NCBI GenBank assembly: GCA_001782825.1
Contig: MFPS01000007.1
Span: 20,487-84,486, forward strand
Reading direction: 5' to 3'
Length of the DNA: 64,000 nucleotides
Origin: Candidatus Magasanikbacteria bacterium RIFCSPHIGHO2_01_FULL_33_34
GTDB taxonomy: Bacteria > Patescibacteriota > Patescibacteriia > Magasanikbacterales > UBA922
Made by a program: the position numbers and the translations under genes. Below, in pieces: positions 6,030 to 46,738 of the stretch. How positions within the stretch are numbered: the first letter of the stretch is position 1; the number at the start of each line of letters is the position of its first letter. Below the pieces are notes generated by a model. The model was given only the letters and a program-made list of their open reading frames with translations. It was not told the DNA's origin and made no database searches.

Positions 6030-6143
6030 ATAGTATTACTCCAACTATATACTTTTATTAAACTTACTTAATTTTAGCATTAACTAAAGCGAAGTTGGTC
6101 CAACTACCTGCCCGCCTCTGGTGGGAGCTATGTTGGTATAAAT

Positions 6144-6170
6144 AAAAGTGGGTTTAGTTTACCCACTTTT
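6144..6170 (-). terminator. Rho-independent terminator after mscS
   Basis: GTGGGT-aaactaa-ACCCAC hairpin followed by TTTTATTT on the minus strand. Confidence 0.6.
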
Positions 6171-6188
6171 ATTGATTTAGTCAATGTT

Positions 6189-7256
6189 TTATTTCTGTAT
6201 ATGTAATGTCTGGGTAGGATAAGCAAACTCTATTTTCTCTGTTTCAAATGCCTTATATATAGCCAAATTTATTTCTTGTTGAGTATCCATATATTTATTA
6301 TAATCTGGACTTTTTACAAAATATACTATTTCAAAACTCAAACTAGAATCCTCATAATTTTTGAAATGACATCTATCAAATTTAGCCAACTTACTATTAT
6401 CAATTATTTCCCTTATAATTTTTGGAATTTTTTCTAACTTGTCCGAAGAAGTCCCATATACTACACCCAGCTTGAAAGATATACGCCTAGTCTCCATTCT
6501 TTTGAGATTTTGAACACGGGCAGTGGTTAATTCTTGATTGGATATAATAAGCTCTTCACCTTGCAAGCTCTTTATTCTCGTAGTTTTTAAACCAATCTTT
6601 TGTACAGTACCCATATCTGTCCCCACTATTATAAAGTCGCCTATTTGAAATGGCTTGTCAATAAAAATTGAAAATGAACTGAATATATCAGTCAATATAT
6701 TTTGCATTGCCAAAGCAATTGCCAATCCACCAATACCAAGACTAGCAATAATAGAATTCACATTCACTCCATAATTGGACAAAATCAATATAATAGCCAA
6801 AACACCAAAACCAAGCAAAACAAAATTCTTAAGAATCCTCATCATATTGCGTACATGATTTTTTTCTTCTTCTGTTTTTAATTTTCTGGTATGTAAATCA
6901 ATCAAGTAATCAAATAGACGACCAAAAGAACGAATCACTTCAAATGCCAAGATTACAAAAAATACAAAATTAACTATTTTGTCTGCTAATTCTGGAAAAT
7001 TCAAAAACCTATAGCCAATATATACCGCCACCATAAAATATAGTGGTGGCTTGATGCTAGAAACAATACCTACTGCCACATCATCAACATCAGTCACAGT
7101 CTTTTCGGCCAATGATCTTAGTTTTCTCAATACTAATGATTGAAAAATCATCAATATGGTCATTGATGCAACCAGTATAAAACCTGCAATAGTAAATTGC
7201 CACAATGAATTGCCAAAATATGAAATACTTTTTAAAAATTCAATTATCTCAATCAT
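6189..7256 (-). CDS. mscS: Small-conductance mechanosensitive channel, MscS family
   Basis: N-terminal TMs then the MscS beta-domain region IGGLAIALAMQNILTDIFSSFSIFIDKPFQIGDFI...GTVQKIGLKTTRIKSLQGEELIISNQ. Confidence 0.8.
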   Translation of the reverse strand: MIEIIEFLKSISYFGNSLWQFTIAGFILVASMTILMIFQSLVLRKLRSLAEKTVTDVDDVAVGIVSSIKPPLYFMVAVYIGYRFLNFPELADKIVNFVFFVILAFEVIRSFGRLFDYLIDLHTRKLKTEEEKNHVRNMMRILKNFVLLGFGVLAIILILSNYGVNVNSIIASLGIGGLAIALAMQNILTDIFSSFSIFIDKPFQIGDFIIVGTDMGTVQKIGLKTTRIKSLQGEELIISNQELTTARVQNLKRMETRRISFKLGVVYGTSSDKLEKIPKIIREIIDNSKLAKFDRCHFKNYEDSSLSFEIVYFVKSPDYNKYMDTQQEINLAIYKAFETEKIEFAYPTQTLHIQK

Positions 7257-10555: not shown

Positions 10556-11812
10556 TTAAAAAATTACTTGTGAAGCATCCACGTCCCCGATAATTGCTAC
10601 TCTCATCTTGTTTGTATTATAAACCTTTTTAGCCAGTTTTTGAATCTGATCTTGAGTAACACCTTCGGTTTCCTTTAATAATTCTTCGGGCGACTTTATC
10701 TTGCGCGCAAATAATGCTTGTTTGGCATAAAAACTAGCTACTGTGCTAGAATTCTCCATTGCCAAACTCATTCTACCTCTAAAATTAGTTTTTGCATCTT
10801 TTAATTCTTGATCAGTCACACCCTTGTCTATCAATTTTTCCAATTCTTGTTTAACCACTACAATCGCTTTATTTATATTTTTTGCCTCAAGTCCTGCGCT
10901 AATATGCATATACCCCGTATCACGAAAATTCTCCGTACCACTGCTAATACTATATGCCAAACCCCGTCTTTCACGAATCTGAATAAACAAACGAGAGCTC
11001 ATAGATCCACCCAAAATATTATTCATTACCGAAGCTATAGGATTTTGATTATCATTGTATTCAAAACCTGGAAATCCCAAAATCATCTGGACTTGATCTG
11101 TACTCTTTCTTTCAACTTTCAATCTACTATCTCGAGCATCGTCTCCATAACCAAATGGCTTAAATGATTTTGAAGGTTTGAATTGACTCTTTTCTTGGCC
11201 AAAATATTTTTCAATAAGTTTTTTTATATTTTCATTTATATGCCCGGCTACCACAACGGTTGCATTGCTTGGATCATAATATTTTTTCTTGTATGCAAGT
11301 ACATCTGTACGCTCAAAATTCATAACATTTTCTTCAGTACCACCAATATCCCAACCCAATGGACCACTATACATCAATTCCTCAAATACATTATCAATAT
11401 TCATAATCGGATTATCTTTGTACATCCTCAATTCTTCAACTATTACCGGCTTTTCTCTTTCCATTTCTTTAGGATCAAAAATAGAATTGTACAACATATC
11501 AGACAATATATCTAAACTCTTTTCAACATAATTACAATCTGTTTTTATATAGTATCCAGTATTTTCTTTACTAGTAAAAGCATTATATTCAGCCCCCAAT
11601 CTATCAATCTCACGAGTCAAAATTAAAGTATTTTTTCTCTTCTTTGTACCTTTAAACATAAGGTGTTCAATATAATGAGAAACACCATTCATTTTTTTTG
11701 ATTCATATCGTGACCCAACTGGATATACTACCAAAACAGTTACAGAATGAGTATTGTCCTGTGGTATCAAAACAATATTAGCCTTATTATCCAACTGATA
11801 TAATTCATGCAT
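10556..11812 (-). CDS. M16-family zinc metallopeptidase (insulinase-like)
   Basis: Inverted zincin motif HYIEHLMFKGT (HxxEH) near the N-terminus; ~420 aa, the typical M16 length. Confidence 0.75.
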   Translation of the reverse strand: MHELYQLDNKANIVLIPQDNTHSVTVLVVYPVGSRYESKKMNGVSHYIEHLMFKGTKKRKNTLILTREIDRLGAEYNAFTSKENTGYYIKTDCNYVEKSLDILSDMLYNSIFDPKEMEREKPVIVEELRMYKDNPIMNIDNVFEELMYSGPLGWDIGGTEENVMNFERTDVLAYKKKYYDPSNATVVVAGHINENIKKLIEKYFGQEKSQFKPSKSFKPFGYGDDARDSRLKVERKSTDQVQMILGFPGFEYNDNQNPIASVMNNILGGSMSSRLFIQIRERRGLAYSISSGTENFRDTGYMHISAGLEAKNINKAIVVVKQELEKLIDKGVTDQELKDAKTNFRGRMSLAMENSSTVASFYAKQALFARKIKSPEELLKETEGVTQDQIQKLAKKVYNTNKMRVAIIGDVDASQVIF

Positions 11813-24759: not shown

Positions 24760-25290
24760 TTATACTTTAGATTCTTTAATTCCATTTAGAACATTCACCA
24801 AACCACGCAAATTTCCAGCCAATACATTTACAAAGCCAGAAATAGGCGCATTCAATGTGCCAACCAACTGACCAAGCATTTGTTGCTTGTTTGGCAATTG
24901 TGACAATTCAGTTACTTTGACAGCATCAATATATTTACCTTCTAATAACCCACCAAATACACTAACAACTTTGTGAGTTTTAGCAAATTTAGCAACAGTT
25001 TGAGCCGGCGCAACTTCATCTTCGTTTCCAAAGACTACTGCTACTCCACCCTCATATGCTTTAGTATCAATATCATAACCTGCATCAGTCAAAGCCTTTT
25101 TAAGTAATGTCTTTTTACTAGCAACATAAGTAATATTTTGCTCGCGACATATACTGCGAAGCTCTTCAGATTCTAAAACCTTCAAACCTTGAAAGTTTGC
25201 AAAAACTACTGATTTGGAATTTTTGATACCATCAACCAATACTTGTAAACTTTGTTCTTTTTGTTGTTTTGTTTTTGCCATAATTTTCAA
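24760..25290 (-). CDS. rplJ: 50S ribosomal protein L10
   Basis: 176 aa immediately upstream of rplL; typical L10 N-terminal domain. Confidence 0.85.
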   Translation of the reverse strand: MKIMAKTKQQKEQSLQVLVDGIKNSKSVVFANFQGLKVLESEELRSICREQNITYVASKKTLLKKALTDAGYDIDTKAYEGGVAVVFGNEDEVAPAQTVAKFAKTHKVVSVFGGLLEGKYIDAVKVTELSQLPNKQQMLGQLVGTLNAPISGFVNVLAGNLRGLVNVLNGIKESKV

Positions 25291-25440
25291 TAAAAAACTG
25301 TGGTTTTCACCACAGACATCTTGGATATCCTCGACCTTTTATTTATTTAAAAAAATAAAGTTAGGATTACCTCGGTAGCTTATTAAGGGTTATACCCTGC
25401 TACTGTCTGCGGTTTGCCCCTAATTGGGACATATATTACG
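25291..25440 (-). promoter_or_regulatory. rplJ leader (L10-leader-like) with attenuator hairpin
   Basis: ~147-nt leader from the minus-strand promoter; CTGTGGTG-aaaa-CCACAG hairpin plus TTTTTTATT only 11 nt before the rplJ ATG. Confidence 0.45.
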
Positions 25441-26786: not shown

Positions 26787-27404
26787 ATGATAAATAAGCC
26801 AAAAAATACCCTTAAAAAGCTAGTTACTACACTGTTTGCGATGACAGTCATTTTGTATCCATCACAAACCCATGCTAAAACTGATTTTTTTATCTTTTCT
26901 GGAATATTCAATATATTCAACACCACACAAACATTACTATCTTATTCCTCTGTCCCATATAATATAACCACCATATATGAGGACGCTAAGGAAAAAATAG
27001 ATGAAGAAAAAATGGAAAAAAATGAAGATAAAGAACAAGCACAAAGAATAGATGAATACTTTAAAAAACGCGATATGCCATTGGCAGGCTACGGCAAAAC
27101 ATTTGTTGACTCTGCCAAAAAGTATAATATCGACCCTCGTCTTTTGGCCGCCATTGGCGTCCGTGAATCATCTGGAGGAAAGCGCTTGATGAATAATAAT
27201 CCGTTTGGTTGGGGAGGAGCTCTAATCAAATTTAAAGATTTTTCTGAAGCAATTGATGTGGTATCAATGAACTTGGGTGGACATAATCCTAATACAGCCA
27301 AATATTATAAAGATGCTGATACTATGGAAAAACTCTGGTATTATAATGGTACAGTGATACCAACTTACCCAGAAGAAGTGATAGCTATAATGGAAATGAT
27401 GTAA
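26787..27404 (+). CDS. Secreted GH73-like peptidoglycan hydrolase (glucosaminidase domain)
   Basis: Signal peptide; LLAAIGVRESSGG and NNPFGWGG resemble the GH73 AIxESxxG / NNxFG motifs. Confidence 0.5.
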   Translation: MINKPKNTLKKLVTTLFAMTVILYPSQTHAKTDFFIFSGIFNIFNTTQTLLSYSSVPYNITTIYEDAKEKIDEEKMEKNEDKEQAQRIDEYFKKRDMPLAGYGKTFVDSAKKYNIDPRLLAAIGVRESSGGKRLMNNNPFGWGGALIKFKDFSEAIDVVSMNLGGHNPNTAKYYKDADTMEKLWYYNGTVIPTYPEEVIAIMEMM

Positions 27405-27432
27405 TAAAAAACGGCTAAAAACCGTTTTTTAT
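27405..27432 (+). terminator. Rho-independent terminator
   Basis: AAACGG-ctaaaa-CCGTTT hairpin followed by TTTTATT. Confidence 0.55.
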
Positions 27433-27511
27433 TACATTGAAATTTTAAAACTCTGCTATCACATTTTGATTATTTTTTATTTGGACTTTATGTAATTTTA
27501 TATAAAAGATT

Positions 27512-27540
27512 TTGACAATTATAAAATTTAAGTTTATTAT
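27512..27540 (+). promoter_or_regulatory. Sigma70-like promoter for the 27570 gene
   Basis: TTGACA-17-TATTAT. Confidence 0.5.
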
Positions 27541-27569
27541 TAACTATATATTTATCAATTTTAACCTTT

Positions 27570-28589
27570 ATGAGTAATGAATTAATAAAAAGACCTCCAA
27601 GCGAAGTTTCGTTAACCAATCAACCAACTAACCTAGCAACTCCAGATTCATTGGCAACCAATTTAGAAAAAAAAGAACAAAGAGAACGGCAATTTCCACC
27701 TATTGTTGATATGTATAAAACTTTGGAAAGAATAAGAGAAACAGGTAATAGCCGAGCTAATATCCAGGGCATAGCTAGCAACGGCGAAGTACAAATAGAC
27801 ACAAATTTTGAAAAATTAGGTCCAATAATTAAAGAATATAATGATCTTGTTGATAACAAAAAACGATATGATACCATAGTAAATTTAGAAAGTTATCCAG
27901 AAATTAACGAAATCACAAATCCAGAACAAGAGTGGCATAAAATTTATAAAGAACATGATGAATTATTACATTTTAATTTTGGTGATTTAAAAATTTCTCT
28001 TGAAGGTGCCACAACCTACTCTATAAATGATGATAGTTATGATAGGTGGTCAATAAGACAACTAGCAAACAGCCCTTCTGAAGCCAATAATCCCAATTAT
28101 GTTTTTTCTATACAAGAAAAAAATGAACCAGCTTTTCGAGTACAAGTAAATCCAGATGGAAATGTAAAAATATTAGATACCAACAGACAAAATATATATT
28201 TAGATGCAGAAACAAATAGAAAAACAAACAAACCTGAAACAAAGGTAGAAAAAATTGTTTCACAAACCAGACATGTGCATGAAGAAATTCCTATAAGTTT
28301 ATGGAAAATACTAGCCAAATTAAGTGCTTGGAAAGGTTTCAAAGCGCTTATAGGGATTTATAAACCAACTGAAAGTGTGTATTCTCATGATGAAGAAGAT
28401 ATAGTAAGTAAATATGAATATGTACCAAATGCACCTATTGGTGGTCCCAATATCAATCTTAAACTAGATCCAAAAAGACCTGACAAATTTCAAATGGCCA
28501 CAATACTACTAAATTTATTAAAAGAAGGTATGAACAATTTGCAAAAAGCAGAGGCCAAAATGACTGACATACCGTTTGTAAAAAAATAA
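27570..28589 (+). CDS. Hypothetical protein
   Basis: 339-aa ORF preceded by a consensus promoter; no recognised family. Confidence 0.5.
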   Translation: MSNELIKRPPSEVSLTNQPTNLATPDSLATNLEKKEQRERQFPPIVDMYKTLERIRETGNSRANIQGIASNGEVQIDTNFEKLGPIIKEYNDLVDNKKRYDTIVNLESYPEINEITNPEQEWHKIYKEHDELLHFNFGDLKISLEGATTYSINDDSYDRWSIRQLANSPSEANNPNYVFSIQEKNEPAFRVQVNPDGNVKILDTNRQNIYLDAETNRKTNKPETKVEKIVSQTRHVHEEIPISLWKILAKLSAWKGFKALIGIYKPTESVYSHDEEDIVSKYEYVPNAPIGGPNINLKLDPKRPDKFQMATILLNLLKEGMNNLQKAEAKMTDIPFVKK

Positions 28590-28619
28590 AATCCATAAAA
28601 TAACTACTATATTCTACAT

Positions 28620-29207
28620 ATGTCTAAACTAGATTCTATCCGTGAAATAAACACAGACTTTAAAAATGATAAACCAATAAATTTTGAAGAATTTAATTTT
28701 TCAGATATTATGTGGAAAAATATTTCAGATAAAAGAAATACAGCAGAAATAAAAATGATTATCGACAATAAAACATACAATTGTAAACTTGTAAACAATA
28801 GAGACAATCGCGCAATACGAATAAGTTTTGATTTATTTGATGATGAAAATGAGCTAGATCATATTTTGTGGGGAGATATTAATTTTGATGCAGATACTAA
28901 CAATCCTGATAGTGAAGTTAATGTCAGAATTTCTAGAGAAAAAATTACAAATGAAAACGATAAAAAAAATTCACTTCCAGCCGGTACTGGCATTATTCTT
29001 TATCAAAAAATATTAGACTATATCAAAGAAGAAGCCAAACAATACAAAAAAGGCTTACTGCATAGAGTAATCCATGAACCGAGTCTAGGACTTGATCCAC
29101 AAAAATGGAATAAAATTTTTGAACCACTACTAACAGAAAAAGGTTATAAAAAAATTACAGATGGTGAATGGGAACATTTGTATGAAGGAACAGACGATAA
29201 AAGCTAA
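28620..29207 (+). CDS. Hypothetical protein (weak GNAT-like motif)
   Basis: 195 aa; PAGTGIILYQKI faintly resembles the acetyl-CoA-binding motif A. Weak. Confidence 0.4.
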   Translation: MSKLDSIREINTDFKNDKPINFEEFNFSDIMWKNISDKRNTAEIKMIIDNKTYNCKLVNNRDNRAIRISFDLFDDENELDHILWGDINFDADTNNPDSEVNVRISREKITNENDKKNSLPAGTGIILYQKILDYIKEEAKQYKKGLLHRVIHEPSLGLDPQKWNKIFEPLLTEKGYKKITDGEWEHLYEGTDDKS

Positions 29208-29254
29208 ACTCAATTTTGTTTAAGATGTTTAATAAATCAATATACTCTATAACA

Positions 29255-29285
29255 AATTAAAATCCCCTAGTTTGGGGATTTTAAT
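29255..29285. terminator. Bidirectional hairpin terminator
   Basis: AAAATCCCC-tagtttg-GGGATTTT with A/T runs on both sides. Confidence 0.55.
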
Positions 29286-29381
29286 TTGTTATATTTACTT
29301 CGGAGCACCAGTCAAACCGATAAACTCAGTTGTACTGGTGCGTAGCTCCGAAGTAACGGAGACTACTTGTTGAAAGAGTAT

Positions 29382-29567
29382 CTACCTCCTCTTGTTGTTG
29401 ACCTCCTGCTTCAAGTCCTTCGGTGGCAAGCCATCGCCACCGTTCCGCTTGCCGACGAAGACACCCCGCCGACAGGCGTCCCTCTGGCTCTTGGAATGAA
29501 GCCACTTGCCACGGCAATAGGGACAAGCGTTGTCCCTCTTGACATTGTTCTGGTTGTAAGAAGCCAT
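29382..29567 (-). CDS. Small (61 aa) CPYC-containing basic protein encoded in a GC-rich islet
   Basis: Strong SD (AAAGGAGA) 7 nt before the ATG; MASYNQNNVKRDNACPYCRGKWLHSKSQRDACRRG.... Codon usage (AAG, AGG, GAC, GGC) is unlike every neighbour. A long hairpin follows at 29296-29355. Confidence 0.4.
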   Translation of the reverse strand: MASYNQNNVKRDNACPYCRGKWLHSKSQRDACRRGVFVGKRNGGDGLPPKDLKQEVNNKRR

Positions 29568-29786
29568 CTCGAATCTCCTTTCCCTTTGTCTATACAGTTA
29601 TTGCAAATACAAAAGAATAAAAAATTCTAACATATTTAAGTACTTTTGTCAATATTATTATGGGGATAATTTCACACCTATCCCATCAAAACATAATATG
29701 TCATCCCTGCGTAGGCTGGGATCCAGTAATTCATTATTTTACAATATAGACAATACACACTATTTTTCCAGTTCTAATTACAAATT

Positions 29787-29815
29787 TTGACTAGACCATT
29801 TACTTTGTATATAAT
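29787..29815 (+). promoter_or_regulatory. Consensus sigma70 promoter of tsaD
   Basis: TTGACT-17-TATAAT. It lies inside the track ORF 5' extension, so the true start is the ATG at 29826 (very short leader). Confidence 0.55.
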
Positions 29816-29825
29816 GGTTGTGAAT

Positions 29826-30836
29826 ATGCATATACTAGGGATTGAATCATCTTGCGACGATACATCTGTCGCATTAGTTGAAGCCACTGAAAATGGCTTT
29901 GTTGTGGTATCAGAAAAGACCTCAAGCCAAATTGAAGTTCACAAAAAATATGGTGGTGTCATCCCTGAAATAGCCGGACGAATGCATGCAGAAAACATTA
30001 TCCCCGTAGTAGAAGAAGTAATGAAAAACCAAAATAAACCAGATGTAGTTGCCGTCACATCAGGCCCTGGACTCATCACTGGCCTTTTGGTTGGAGTAGA
30101 GACTGGAAAAACCTTATCAAATTTATGGAATATCCCCCTTGTCAGTGTAAACCATATAGATGGACATATCCACTCAGTAGAGCTCAAAGCCGAAAAAACT
30201 ACAATAGAATTTCCAGCCATTTGTCTAGTAGTTAGTGGTGGTCACACTGAACTACTTCTCATGACAAATCACAATAAATTTGAACTACTTGGCAAAACCC
30301 GTGATGATGCATCTGGAGAAACTTTTGATAAAGTTGCCAAACTGATTGGCTTTGAATATCCCGGTGGTGCCAAAATATCCAAAGAAGCTGAAAATGGCAA
30401 TCCTAAAGCAATTGATTTCCCTCGCCCGATGATCCAAACCGGTTATGAATTTAGTTTTGCTGGCCTTAAAACTTCTGCACTTTATTGGTTGCGCGACAAT
30501 CCAAAATTCAATAAACAAGATTTTTGCGCCAGTTTTGAAACAGCCATAGTTGATGTCCTAACTACTAAAACAATCAGGTCCATAAAAGAATTTAATCCAA
30601 AAACTGTCATACTCGCAGGCGGAGTCAGCGCAAACAAAAAACTTCGCGAAACACTCGGCCAAACAATTAATAAAACTAATGCCAAACTCCTAATACCTGA
30701 GATGAAATATACCATGGATAATGCAGCTATGATTGCTGTGGCTGGATATTACAAAACAATTAAAAATAATTATACAGATTGGAAGACTATTGAAGCTGAT
30801 CCAAATTGGAAAGTATACACAAATAATAATGAGTAA
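29826..30836 (+). CDS. tsaD: tRNA N6-adenosine threonylcarbamoyltransferase TsaD (Kae1/OSGEP family)
   Basis: MHILGIESSCDDTSVALV..., metal-binding His pair (HIDGHIHS) and GGVSAN motif. Start moved from 29787 to 29826 because of the promoter. Confidence 0.85.
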   Translation: MHILGIESSCDDTSVALVEATENGFVVVSEKTSSQIEVHKKYGGVIPEIAGRMHAENIIPVVEEVMKNQNKPDVVAVTSGPGLITGLLVGVETGKTLSNLWNIPLVSVNHIDGHIHSVELKAEKTTIEFPAICLVVSGGHTELLLMTNHNKFELLGKTRDDASGETFDKVAKLIGFEYPGGAKISKEAENGNPKAIDFPRPMIQTGYEFSFAGLKTSALYWLRDNPKFNKQDFCASFETAIVDVLTTKTIRSIKEFNPKTVILAGGVSANKKLRETLGQTINKTNAKLLIPEMKYTMDNAAMIAVAGYYKTIKNNYTDWKTIEADPNWKVYTNNNE

Positions 30837-36043: not shown

Positions 36044-36868
36044 TCACACAGCTATCATTTGCTTTTCCCCCTTGGATGAATTAATTAAGCCAAAGCCATT
36101 ATTCATGAACATCTCTCCTCTGATGTCTAGATTCATGTCGTCCACCACCCTCAGGACGGCATTGTATGCGTCGGATACCCGACGACTTTTGGCATCCAAC
36201 GTCTCCGTCGAATACCTGTGGTTCAGTTTCTGAGAAATGTCTTCGTAGTACATCGCTGGGTGAGGTATCTCGTAGAAACTAACATCTGCTCTCCCGTTCC
36301 AAACACGTAACAAGAGTTCGATGGGAATTCCATACCTCTCCACGATCAAATGTGGAGCTACGAGCTCAACATGCTCTATCCTGAATCCCATAAACCCTGT
36401 ACGTACATCCGAAAGTGCAACTCCTGTGATGGCTTTAAACACGCTCGAAAACGTGATATTAAGGATCAACCTGTCCAACGGAGTACTGGACTGATCAGAT
36501 TCAGGGTGAAACCTGGAGCAGGTCACGACGTCGTGATGACTCAAGAGTCTGTAAACCCTAGGAATCAACTCAATATCGTGTTGTCCGTCGGCGTCGAACT
36601 TGATCACATGACTTGCGTTGCCGTCTTGTACGATCTTTTGTAACCCCACTTTAGTCGCAGCACCGACCCCCATATTATGGGGCAGTACAATTACGTTATC
36701 GGTGAATTCCCTTGCAATTTCTGCACTTCTATCCTCCGACCCGTCGTCGACTATGTACAGTCTAGTCTTGACCCCATCGATTTTGACTGGAATCCGTGCC
36801 AAGATCTCGCCCAACGTCTCCTGTTCGTTGAAAATTGGGCTGAACAGTGCGATCTCATTGTTCATCAA
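36044..36868 (-). CDS. Family-2 glycosyltransferase (DPM1/polyprenyl-phosphate glycosyltransferase-like), compositionally foreign
   Basis: IVDDGSEDRS and DADGQHD motifs. GC visibly much higher than neighbours (runs like cgtcgtccaccaccctcaggacggc). Confidence 0.7.
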   Translation of the reverse strand: MMNNEIALFSPIFNEQETLGEILARIPVKIDGVKTRLYIVDDGSEDRSAEIAREFTDNVIVLPHNMGVGAATKVGLQKIVQDGNASHVIKFDADGQHDIELIPRVYRLLSHHDVVTCSRFHPESDQSSTPLDRLILNITFSSVFKAITGVALSDVRTGFMGFRIEHVELVAPHLIVERYGIPIELLLRVWNGRADVSFYEIPHPAMYYEDISQKLNHRYSTETLDAKSRRVSDAYNAVLRVVDDMNLDIRGEMFMNNGFGLINSSKGEKQMIAV

Positions 36869-44639: not shown

Positions 44640-45720
44640 ATGTTGAAGTATTTTTATATTGATAGTATACTACAACAACTATGAAAAAACAACAAGCCCA
44701 AACTCCATTCCACAATCTACTAAAAAAGATTATTTCTTCACGACCGCAGAAAGCAAAGAAGCGAAGCGTAGCCTGTCGTTGCCTCGGTTGTTCCAATGCC
44801 AAACAAACTGGTCAAGATAACTCTGCAACTGCTCCTGCGAAATAGATTTGTATGTGCCTCGCAAAGAGGCTTTTACATGTTTCCAAAACCATTCTACATG
44901 GTTTATGTGTATGTCCCCCCGGGCATATTCTTTTTTTGAGTGATTAACGCTTTCTCGGTGGTATTCTTTGCTGGCGTTATCATAGCGGTTGCTCTCGTCT
45001 GTTAGAAGTCTGGTATTTTCAATTTGCACATTATCTTTCAAAAAACCATCAATCGTTTTGGCGGTTAGATTTGGTACTTTCTTGGCTCTCATGTCACCCT
45101 CACGCTCAATGGCGGCGATAACCTTAGCTTTACTTGCCATAACATCAGAATAGTTTTTATTATATTTTCCGCCATTGCCTTTACCGCCAAAAAACGCCTC
45201 GTCCATTTCCACATTGCCTCGCAGTGGGGTTGTGTCTTGCCCTATACTATCTCTGATTTGCTTTAATACCCTATAAGCGGTCTTATAGGTAACATTTAGC
45301 TGTCTTTGCATTTCTTTAGCTGATATACCTGATTTGGCGTTTGAGAATATCAAAATAGCATGAAACCATTGTTTTAGAGGTAAATGGGACTTTTCAAAAA
45401 TGCTGTCTGTCATTGGGGCGATTTGATACCTGCATTTTGAGCATTGATATTGTTTACGCCCTGTTAGCCTAACTCGTCCCTTTTTGTCTATTGTGGTCTT
45501 AAATAGAGGATTATATTCACCGCCACAAGCGCACTCCTTTGTATGTGATAGGCTGAATAGATAGTCTAGGCATGCCTCGTCAGTAGGGAAATCATGCTCT
45601 AGGTCTGTTCTGCCATAATAGTCTTGTTTTGCCATATTGTTATATTTAATTGATTATGTTGTAAGTATAACATAGACTAATTATGTTGTAAAGGGATACA
45701 TGTGTAATATTCAAGAATTA
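44640..45720 (-). mobile_element. IS1595-like insertion sequence (approximate bounds)
   Basis: A single transposase ORF with atypical composition. Terminal inverted repeats were not confidently located by eye. Confidence 0.4.
44730..45635 (-). CDS. IS1595-family (ISXO2-like) DDE transposase
   Basis: N-terminal zinc ribbon (CACGG...CSKCRY) followed by HTH and DDE region. GC and codon usage are higher than the host background. Confidence 0.7.
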   Translation of the reverse strand: MAKQDYYGRTDLEHDFPTDEACLDYLFSLSHTKECACGGEYNPLFKTTIDKKGRVRLTGRKQYQCSKCRYQIAPMTDSIFEKSHLPLKQWFHAILIFSNAKSGISAKEMQRQLNVTYKTAYRVLKQIRDSIGQDTTPLRGNVEMDEAFFGGKGNGGKYNKNYSDVMASKAKVIAAIEREGDMRAKKVPNLTAKTIDGFLKDNVQIENTRLLTDESNRYDNASKEYHRESVNHSKKEYARGDIHINHVEWFWKHVKASLRGTYKSISQEQLQSYLDQFVWHWNNRGNDRLRFASLLSAVVKK

Positions 45721-45787: not shown

Positions 45788-46738
45788 TTATTCCAAACCC
45801 CAATCTCTCTTCAATTCTGCAATCCCATCTTCAAATTTTATAGTTGGTTCCCAACCAAGAAGTTCTTTGGCTTTGGTTGTATCGGCTTCACTGCGTCTTG
45901 GGTCGCCTGGTCTCTCTGGTATATTCATAGTCTCGCCACCGATTAGACGCGCCAATTCATTGACTGATTTGCATTGACCATACCCAGCATTGATCACTTC
46001 ACCTTTGCCGACTTTGTCAGATGTCATCGCCAATAAATTTGCCCTAGCCACATCAGCCACATGGGTATAATCCCGATAATACTCCCCATCCCCACAAATC
46101 GTCATTGGCTCGCCTTTGGCTCTTTGTTTGAGGAATTTACCCACTACCAATGCATAAGCTCCTTCTGGGTCAATATATGGCCCATACACATTGAAATAGC
46201 GAAGTGATACTGTCTCAAAACCATAAAGCTCACTAAACAATCGGCAATACATCTCGCCTGTATATTTATGGAGCGCATAGGGGCTGATCGGGTTACCACA
46301 CATATCTTCTCTCAATTTTTCATTATCATTGCCACCATAGACAGATGACGAAGAGCTAAACACAAATCTTTTGACACCAGCATCGCGCGCGCCTACCAAC
46401 AGAGTCAGGGTTCCATTTACATTATTATCATTGGTTTCAATCGGATGCTCAATAGAATATGGCACACGTGGTATCGCTGCCAGATGAAATACGCCATCAA
46501 TACCCACCATAGCGCGCTTCACATCCTCCATATTGCGAATATCCCCTTCTATATATTCAACACCCTTTTGGATCCTATCATCTTTTTTGCCAGCGCTAAA
46601 ATTATCCAAAACACGAACTTTATGTCCATCACTCAAAAGTTTAATAACAATATTTGTGCCAATAAATCCAGCGCCACCGGTAACCAAATATTTCTTAGCC
46701 AATAGTTCAGAGCCAATAGGTTGTGCTTGATTGTTCAT
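45788..46738 (-). CDS. NAD-dependent nucleotide-sugar 4-epimerase (GalE/UDP-glucuronate epimerase-like extended SDR)
   Basis: TGGAGFIG Rossmann motif, YxxxK catalytic pair (YALHKY). Confidence 0.75.
   Translation of the reverse strand: MNNQAQPIGSELLAKKYLVTGGAGFIGTNIVIKLLSDGHKVRVLDNFSAGKKDDRIQKGVEYIEGDIRNMEDVKRAMVGIDGVFHLAAIPRVPYSIEHPIETNDNNVNGTLTLLVGARDAGVKRFVFSSSSSVYGGNDNEKLREDMCGNPISPYALHKYTGEMYCRLFSELYGFETVSLRYFNVYGPYIDPEGAYALVVGKFLKQRAKGEPMTICGDGEYYRDYTHVADVARANLLAMTSDKVGKGEVINAGYGQCKSVNELARLIGGETMNIPERPGDPRRSEADTTKAKELLGWEPTIKFEDGIAELKRDWGLE

Follow-up and report, generated by a model that had tools for sequence, protein, structure and literature searches.

Proteins shorter than 70 amino acids (aa) that stand alone and carry a single zinc-binding domain are numerous in the archaeon Haloferax volcanii, and the mechanism of these one-domain zinc-finger micro-proteins is mostly unknown (PMC6562870). 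A gene for what appears, by that description, to be the same kind of object, a stand-alone single-domain small protein, is described here from a bacterium of the candidate phyla radiation (CPR). It encodes a 61-aa product and lies in a GC-rich islet on the minus strand of a DNA stretch of 64,000 nucleotides (nt), called the window, from Candidatus Magasanikbacteria bacterium RIFCSPHIGHO2_01_FULL_33_34 (GenBank assembly GCA_001782825.1, contig MFPS01000007.1, positions 20,487 to 84,486 of the forward strand). The locus is most probably an autonomous gene for a small basic CCHC protein of an undescribed family, which has its own promoter, hairpin and terminator and may have been acquired horizontally as a cassette. 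The archaeal micro-proteins carry two C(P)XCG pairs and thus four Cys residues, whereas the islet family is bacterial (CPR), is of the CCHC type and has a conserved promoter and terminator; no sequence homology between the two was detected.

Other described proteins share parts of this design. Anti-TRAP (RtpA, 53 aa), a protein of similar size, binds zinc through two CxxC pairs and works by binding a partner, and the cysteine-rich domain of DnaJ (PF00684) contains four CXXCXGXG repeats which make up two zinc centres. The islet family resembles both in its C-P-x-C-x-G knuckle, which reads CPHCNGAG in the member P0005, but it has one CxxCxG unit, and its other ligands are a His and a distal Cys (C-x2-C-x5-H-x7-C). 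The operon or leader of the rtpA type is also lacking at the islet. In retroviral-type CCHC knuckles, which bind single-stranded RNA and hairpin loops, the ligand order is likewise C, C, H, C and the peptide very basic; their spacing, however, is C-x2-C-x4-H-x4-C, and in the models of the islet family a helix follows the knuckle.

As a unit of expression, the locus is closest in kind to the morons known from lambdoid phage genomics, which are autonomous units of promoter, open reading frame (ORF) and terminator with a deviant composition. Like these, it consists of one ORF with its own sigma-70 promoter and factor-independent terminator, lies between unrelated genes and deviates in composition. 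It differs in lacking a prophage context: around it lie tsaD, prs, dnaE and orphan genes for which no homologues were recognised, with one weak transglycosylase match to PHROGs.

The GC-rich islet contains a protein-coding ORF

The GC content of the 64-kb window was 31.9% overall. In 100-nt windows it reached 0.46-0.63 over positions 29300-29599, with 0.22-0.34 in the flanks. When 3190 windows of 200 nt were compared (mean 0.319, standard deviation (sd) 0.058), the maximum of 0.56 was found in the one starting at 29341, and 29341-29580 was the richest stretch of the 64 kb (0.54-0.56 vs 0.32). Several overlapping ORFs are present at the islet, one of which, on the minus strand and preceded by a Shine-Dalgarno (SD) sequence, translates as MASYNQNNVKRDNACPYCRGKWLHSKSQRDACRRGVFVGKRNGGDGLPPKDLKQEVNNKRR.

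The GC contents of this ORF at codon positions 1/2/3 were 0.48/0.44/0.77, compared with 0.43/0.31/0.23 for 33 long ORFs of the window. The excess is concentrated at third codon positions and in one frame only, and because of this periodicity the ORF is read as coding rather than as an RNA gene. The GC content at third codon positions (GC3) lay 7.6 sd over the host mean (54 window ORFs: mean 0.237, sd 0.07, maximum 0.56), and the codon-adaptiveness score was -0.57 against +0.22 ± 0.14 (minimum -0.29) for the 33 long ORFs. Within the 51-aa subfamily of homologues, per-site differences at codon positions 1/2/3 were 0.23/0.19/0.32. A first-pass annotation of this DNA had noticed the GC-rich islet in its AT-rich background, the overlapping ORFs, the 61-aa minus-strand ORF with its SD sequence and codons foreign to the neighbouring genes, and on all of these points it was right. 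From its sequence, it is concluded that the 61-aa ORF is a real protein-coding gene, presumably translated into the 61-aa product.

Homologues share a conserved Cys/His core

A word-indexed protein search with the 61-aa peptide returned the self-match only. An exhaustive HMMER scan of 1.84 billion representatives returned seven matches besides the protein itself; two of them, P0004 and P0005, are genuine small homologues, and five were repeat proteins with accumulated score, which were discarded as artefacts. The window protein, P0004 and P0005 all contain C-P-[YH]-C-x-G-x3-H-[ST]-x-[SN]-Q-R-x2-C-[KR]. From the residues common to these three proteins, and solely from them, a DNA pattern of ~44 bits was back-translated. 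In 54 loci it matched every known member and nothing besides, and in the JGI metagenome collection it matched nine stretches, all of which are in-frame small ORFs of 41-54 aa. An Asp three residues ahead of the first Cys, absent from the pattern specification, was present in nine of nine. A profile search resulted in 25 clusters.

Together, ~30 small ORFs of 41-61 aa have the common motif D-x2-C-P-[YH]-C-x-G-x3-H-x3-Q-R-x2-C-[KR]. Over 25 sequences D12, C15, P16, C18, G20, H24, R29 and C32 were invariant, and Y17, Q28 and K33 nearly so. The window protein belongs to this family, with D12, C15, P16, C18, G20, H24, Q28, R29, C32 and R33 in the invariant or near-invariant columns. Members come from metagenomic contigs and metagenome-assembled genomes (MAGs); two clusters carry organism labels, of Ca. 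Parcubacteria and Ca. Eisenbacteria MAGs. The clusters for which the source gives a name are listed as 'hypothetical protein', except P0005, which has the JGI label 'DnaJ-class molecular chaperone'.

No Pfam domain was found in any of the 25 clusters, and family members did not score at the curated cut-offs of Pfam, NCBIfam, PHROGs or PADLOC. A literature search for the motif strings returned no paper, and no solved structure in the PDB is related to the family by sequence. By these searches the protein family is undescribed: neither Pfam, NCBIfam and the PDB nor the literature has an entry for it.

The product is probably a basic zinc-knuckle protein

The isoelectric points (pI) of the family products are 9.4-10.3, and the window protein contains 15 Lys and Arg vs 5 Asp and Glu residues. 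AlphaFold (AF2) models were seeded separately with the window protein and a 51-aa member, and the two agree in a beta-hairpin that bears the Cys knuckle, after which a helix extends to the last Cys. The helix spans residues 26-33, and the block-mean predicted local distance difference test (pLDDT) was 71-85 across residues 11-40. The invariant ligand pattern suggests C15, C18, H24 and C32 as zinc ligands. The proposal of a zinc ribbon in the first-pass annotation was half right: a Cys/His pattern of the metal-binding type is conserved (C, C, H, C plus D, P, G, Q and R, in ~30 homologues), but it makes a single CCHC knuckle with a helix and not a classical four-ligand ribbon. The product is probably a basic CCHC zinc-knuckle protein that binds nucleic acid, a function assigned because of the charge of the protein. 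It may bind RNA or DNA, most likely RNA, or, like anti-TRAP, serve as a small adaptor.

Assignment to a known family was tried and rejected in each case. Some family members gave weak, sub-threshold hidden Markov model matches to the DnaJ CXXCXGXG domain and to anti-TRAP (E down to 3.5e-5). For PF00684 the best member scored 18.7 vs 32.7 bits and the window protein did not match; one CxxCxG is present only. For anti-TRAP (NF058604) the best score was 23.8 (P0005) vs 65 bits, again without a match of the window protein, and the ligands are C, C, H, C. The retroviral-type zf-CCHC domain was discarded for its spacing mismatch and the lack of a Pfam zf-CCHC match. A type I toxin or small hydrophobic peptide, which would span the membrane and be accompanied by an antisense RNA, was likewise rejected: the peptide is hydrophilic (15 Lys and Arg, pI 10.3), and a match to ohsC was sub-threshold and covered the terminator only. 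No evidence was obtained for the toxin or anti-defence role that had been considered before: PADLOC models did not match five family members at E up to 10, and no match was found in phage, plasmid and viral-contig collections searched with the protein, the DNA and both patterns.

The gene is part of a conserved expression cassette

The features of the islet are collected in Table 1. The predicted transcription start site lies near 29617. The terminator is common to the islet gene and the convergent gene for a 195-aa protein, which ends at 29207. An earlier description of the islet as bracketed by a bidirectional terminator is correct for the terminator itself, but this lies on the 3' side only, and the 5' side is occupied by the promoter.

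Table 1. Predicted features of the islet (coordinates in the window)
Feature	Position	Strand	Remarks
Sigma-70-type promoter: TTGACA (29652..29647), 17-nt spacer, extended -10 TGtTAGAAT (29629..29624)	29624..29652	-	11/12 match, TG present; homologous in L052
Stem-loop of 9 bp + 4 bp at the 5' end of the predicted 5' untranslated region (UTR)	29581..29617	-	z -2.1, weak alone; putative role
SD sequence GGAG, 7 nt upstream of ATG	29575..29578	-	read from the sequence
61-aa ORF (stop codon included)	29382..29567	-	GC3 periodicity, homologues; basic product, pI 10.3
Conserved core D-x2-C-P-Y-C-x-G-x3-H-x3-Q-R-x2-C-R, codons 12-33	29469..29534	-	putative CCHC zinc knuckle + helix
3'-UTR hairpin: P1 11 bp, 5-nt bulge, P2 6 bp, 2x2 internal loop, P3 6 bp, 5-nt apical loop	29296..29355	-	-33.2 kcal/mol, z -7.07
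Bidirectional intrinsic terminator with a CCCC-6 nt-GGGG core and an A/U tract on either side	29248..29293	both	20-nt arms 100% complementary

DNA of 15 family loci was compared (the window as L001, L052, L054-L059, L062-L065 and L068-L070). In all 15, a perfect TTGACA was present 54-118 nt upstream of the ATG, separated by a 17-nt spacer from a -10-like hexamer. An SD-like AGGAG/GGAGG or AGGA was found in 14, L054 having GAGAGG only. Fourteen loci, all but L062, have a GC-rich stem and U-run downstream of the ORF or of an additional hairpin. The window itself has the TTGACA -35 element, the 17-nt spacer, the SD sequence and the terminator of a stand-alone unit.

The locus of P0005 (L052), on an unrelated AT-rich metagenome contig, matches the window in layout, with promoter, GC-rich ORF, hairpin and terminator in an AT-rich background. 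Identity between the two loci was 64% in the promoter, 74% from SD to ATG, 58% in the ORF core, 28% in the ORF tail, 79% in the hairpin and 64% in the terminator, the core of which (AAAAUCCCC..GGGGAUUUUA) is common to both; beyond either end of the cassette it was 42-44%, which equals background. At the position of the 5' stem-loop, L052 has a different hairpin of 8 bp. The neighbouring proteins of the two loci are unrelated, and the L052 genes have no homologue in the window or at the other loci. The islet gene is flanked by tsaD and the convergent 195-aa orphan gene, its relatives by the genes for OmdA and an orphan protein at L052, for a GTPase and hemerythrin at L065 and for a PAS kinase and LigT at L070. 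Because the unit's own promoter, SD and terminator signals recur while the neighbouring genes vary by locus, it is read as an autonomous monocistronic gene that stands alone at all loci.

Given the diversity of the 15 loci, their promoter is unusually conserved. In eight of them, hosts of 60-65% GC included, the -35 element is extended to TTGACAAA, and a CATCCT -10 element is common to five GC-rich members. In the window, an imperfect inverted repeat GGGATA-11 nt-TATCCC (29660-29690) lies directly upstream of the -35 element of the cassette, and a GC-rich patch (29700-29730) is located between two divergent promoters.

The GC3 excess is found in all host backgrounds tested

The GC3 of family genes was 0.67-0.98 irrespective of the GC content of the flanks (0.33-0.65). 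It was higher than the mean of the neighbouring genes in ten of ten host backgrounds, which span GC3 0.25 to 0.80, and higher than the neighbour maximum in nine of ten. Gene and neighbour mean were 0.77 and 0.25 in the window, 0.98 and 0.31 at L052, 0.90 and 0.53 at L060, 0.96 and 0.51 at L063, and 0.98 and 0.65 at L070; the margin was smaller where the host GC3 was 0.71-0.80.

Either selection or un-ameliorated transfer could explain the high GC3. If transfer alone were responsible, the gene would be a recent moron-like cassette from a GC-rich lineage that is decaying towards host composition without synonymous selection. This fits the codon set (CGG, AGG, GGC, GTC, CCC), which resembles GC mutational bias and not translational optimisation, and the T-ending codons in the window (GCT, TGT, CAT, AAT, TAT) where L052 has C-ending ones, as predicted for C-to-T amelioration. 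Moreover, most of the family is of the 51-aa type, found in hosts with a GC content of 60-65%. High GC3 elsewhere in the window is seen in genes that are classic transferred cargo, namely those for a GT2 glycosyltransferase (36044-36865, minus strand, GC3 0.56 vs the host mean of 0.24), an IS1595/ISXO2-like transposase (44730-45635, minus strand, GC3 0.41) and an NAD-dependent epimerase (45788-46738, minus strand, GC3 0.36). These three outliers were probably transferred; no window ORF besides them and the islet gene had a GC3 above 0.33.

An argument for selection on the mRNA is that, since the AT-rich promoter, hairpin and terminator are common to the window and L052, the two genes appear to have diverged in AT-rich hosts, yet their GC3 stays at 0.77 and 0.98. 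The same codon is used at only 7 of 16 conserved residues, with swaps between C and G at fourfold sites, and the excess over the neighbours extends to GC-rich hosts. Neither the exhaustive HMMER search nor the profile search found a close GC-rich donor allele for the window, L052 or L054 type. Transfer as the only cause of the GC-richness is regarded as a serious contender that falls somewhat short of an even chance.

The 3' hairpin is conserved between two loci

The long, near-perfect hairpin behind the ORF had been noticed before, and its folding energy and z-score (Table 1) bear this out. All 23 base pairs of the 60-nt hairpin are kept in the window and L052. Eight of the 12 differences between the two form four compensatory double changes, three lie in the apical loop and one in the bulge, and none breaks a pair. 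Sliding the hairpin register abolishes pairing, and by position alone the probability that eight random stem substitutions form four complete pairs is ~3e-5. With a covariance model of the hairpin, one copy was found in the window and two in L052. The second 3' module of L052 (~10716-11000) lies 4.6 kb from the intact gene, the 3' module of which is at 6141-6385. Over the stretch that begins at the stop codon and includes the hairpin and two terminators its identity is 97%, but it is 5'-truncated, with a diverged remnant of the ORF tail as the only upstream part, and the two copies are not bordered by paralogous genes. This second copy indicates that the 3' module was duplicated and can persist without an intact ORF. 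L054 and L059, the other members from hosts of low or mid GC content, have different, equally long and stable hairpins between stop codon and terminator (z -6.5 and -7.9), whereas in members from GC-rich hosts the terminator follows directly after the ORF with no intervening hairpin. Judged by the compared sequences, the conservation of the 3' hairpin as an RNA structure is genuine.

A more far-reaching interpretation would join the hairpin to the GC3 excess. Selection would hold nearly all synonymous sites at G or C whatever the host (a 'GC3-locked' cassette), and in AT-rich CPR hosts the cassette would have acquired a sequence-specific 3' hairpin able to propagate without the ORF. The encoded protein would perhaps bind this hairpin, so that RNA and protein together would form a self-contained module, either autoregulatory or mobile. 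To our knowledge, nothing like such a cassette has been described in bacteria, and we consider this interpretation improbable.

Slightly more doubtful still is that the transcript is chiefly a functional RNA, either with a dual function or as the source of a small RNA derived from the 3' UTR, with hairpin and terminator as the active parts and the ORF as secondary. The hairpin surpasses the ORF core in conservation (79% vs 58%) and carries compensatory changes, the second 3' module of L052 was kept without an intact ORF, and the whole minus-strand transcript folds with a z-score of -5.9. Most of this fold signal stems from the 3' hairpin, however, and the ORF body alone has no consistent excess of structure (z -2.2 in the window, +1.8 in L052). 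Constraint acts at the protein level in ~30 homologues, most of which lack the hairpin, no Rfam family matches, and the orphan copy in L052 may simply serve as terminator for the adjacent gene.

That the islet is a structured non-coding RNA gene with ORFs open by chance, as the first-pass annotation had considered, is very unlikely and largely refuted. GC islands in AT-rich genomes are usually RNA genes, several overlapping ORFs are present and the folding is strong; yet the third-position periodicity is confined to one frame, the homologues keep amino acids and not nucleotides, and the fold signal comes largely from the 3' hairpin. Structure over the whole ORF was rejected as the cause of its GC content because the L052 ORF folds worse than its shuffled versions. 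Across the whole window, Rfam 15 at gathering scores returned six tRNAs and the L10 leader only, and none at 29200-29700. The leader (L10_leader, 25282-25430, minus strand, 54.3 bits) lies upstream of rplJ-rplL and is an ordinary feature. A permissive Rfam scan of 29150-29850 gave sub-threshold matches only, none with E <1 on the ORF body; the best, ohsC, scored 32.7 vs 50 bits. ARAGORN located six tRNAs elsewhere in the window and no tRNA or tmRNA at the islet.

An assembly chimera or a contaminant fragment joined into a CPR contig, suspected earlier and suggested by the abrupt shift in composition across ~250 bp, can practically be dismissed, as 421 nt around the islet are 100% identical, flanks included, between two separately assembled JGI samples, 3300002502 and 3300002105 (the contigs on which the protein is recorded are 229,695 and 56,754 bp long and agree in gene order), and the GC-rich ORF lies between a promoter and a terminator that are host-like, AT-rich and homologous to those of L052 from an independent metagenome, where the architecture recurs. 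The islet is not an assembly artefact, because its sequence is identical in the two JGI assemblies.

Genomic context of the cassette

A common neighbourhood was found in one GC-rich clade only, with genes for an HI0933-like flavoprotein and an RF-1-domain protein. In this clade (L064:4067-6320, L068:4469-8930 and L069:4385-6355) the small gene adjoins the flavoprotein gene and lies near a convergent gene for the 140-aa RF-1-domain protein, which we take to be ArfB-like. The arrangement may reflect synteny within the lineage, or else a functional connection with ribosome rescue.

By its TsaD the window falls into Ca. Magasanikbacteria; the best GTDB matches of this protein had 57-67% identity. 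At the TsaD loci of 49 GTDB genomes, neither the family motif, similar DNA nor a consistent GC island upstream of tsaD was found, and homologues of the neighbouring 195-, 339- and 205-aa genes were absent from these loci. The three genes lie consecutively on the plus strand beside the islet (26787-29207, in the order 205, 339 and 195 aa). The 339- and 195-aa proteins had no Pfam or PHROG match, the 205-aa protein had a weak glucosaminidase/transglycosylase match, and the region looks like a variable, lineage-specific one. A recent horizontal acquisition of the islet, as had been proposed, is plausible in view of the foreign-like composition and the missing motif at the 49 loci, but with relatives as distant as these an insertion cannot be dated.

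Neither terminal inverted repeats nor convincing target duplications were found on the flanks of the cassette; a 12-nt direct repeat of 83% identity at 29268 and 29656 was judged to be due to chance. An integron cassette is defined by attC core sites R''/R' (RYYYAAC ... GTTRRRY) at the base of the hairpin and by the lack of a promoter. The islet does not conform to this, since the hairpin base reads (U)ACUUC...GAAGU(A), L052 is without the GTT core and the unit has its own promoter.

The ATG of tsaD (29826) is located 3-4 nt past the predicted start site of a near-consensus promoter TTGACT-17-TATAAT (29787..29815) and is not preceded by an SD sequence, so that the tsaD mRNA is probably leaderless.

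Discussion

The combined results are best explained by an autonomous gene for a small, basic CCHC protein. The near-consensus sigma-70 promoter would drive a transcript of ~355 nt, from ~29617 to ~29262, with the 5' stem-loop, the GGAG SD sequence, the 61-codon ORF, the 60-nt hairpin and the terminator in this order. Translation would yield a strongly basic protein, of which only one CCHC knuckle and a short helix are expected to be ordered, and which may bind zinc via C15, C18, H24 and C32 and act as a small nucleic-acid binder, most likely of RNA, or as an adaptor. Together with the G/C-rich body, the stem-loop at the 5' end and the 3' hairpin could render the mRNA unusually nuclease-resistant in its AT-rich host, protecting it from nucleases that need a free 5' end, cut AU-rich sequence or digest from the 3' end. 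This proposal follows established principles of bacterial mRNA decay. The cassette would have entered the Magasanikbacteria-like genome by horizontal transfer.

Several points weigh against parts of this interpretation. The promoter scan alone did not exceed chance in the AT-rich region, with five promoters found vs 3.9 expected. The AF2 models are of moderate confidence (mean pLDDT 66 and 72), and Foldseek returned no PDB match for either of them. Covariation in the hairpin involves two lineages only, and a column-shuffle control equalled the observed value in 31 of 500 cases. The role of the hairpins and the GC-rich body in mRNA stability is pure conjecture. The family is rare among called proteins. 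The absence of the motif at the TsaD loci of relatives is compatible with insertion into a variable region, but as evidence it is weak because these relatives are distant (57-67% identity).

As an object, the islet is of an ordinary type, a small accessory gene, and one-domain zinc micro-proteins are already known. New is an undescribed family of small zinc-knuckle proteins with an unusually conserved expression cassette; the family is conserved and apparently strongly expressed. The real oddities are the family-wide GC3 excess, above the neighbour mean in every host tested, and a covarying 3'-UTR hairpin, the conservation of which exceeds that of the coding sequence. Not every GC island in an AT-rich genome is an RNA gene, and the two kinds can be told apart by third-position periodicity. 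In CPR genomes, small proteins are systematically overlooked or remain without a name. If the hold on GC content is selective, this tiny gene would clearly exemplify, in nature, selection that acts on mRNA composition; otherwise the locus would neatly illustrate a moron-like cassette transferred into a reduced genome.

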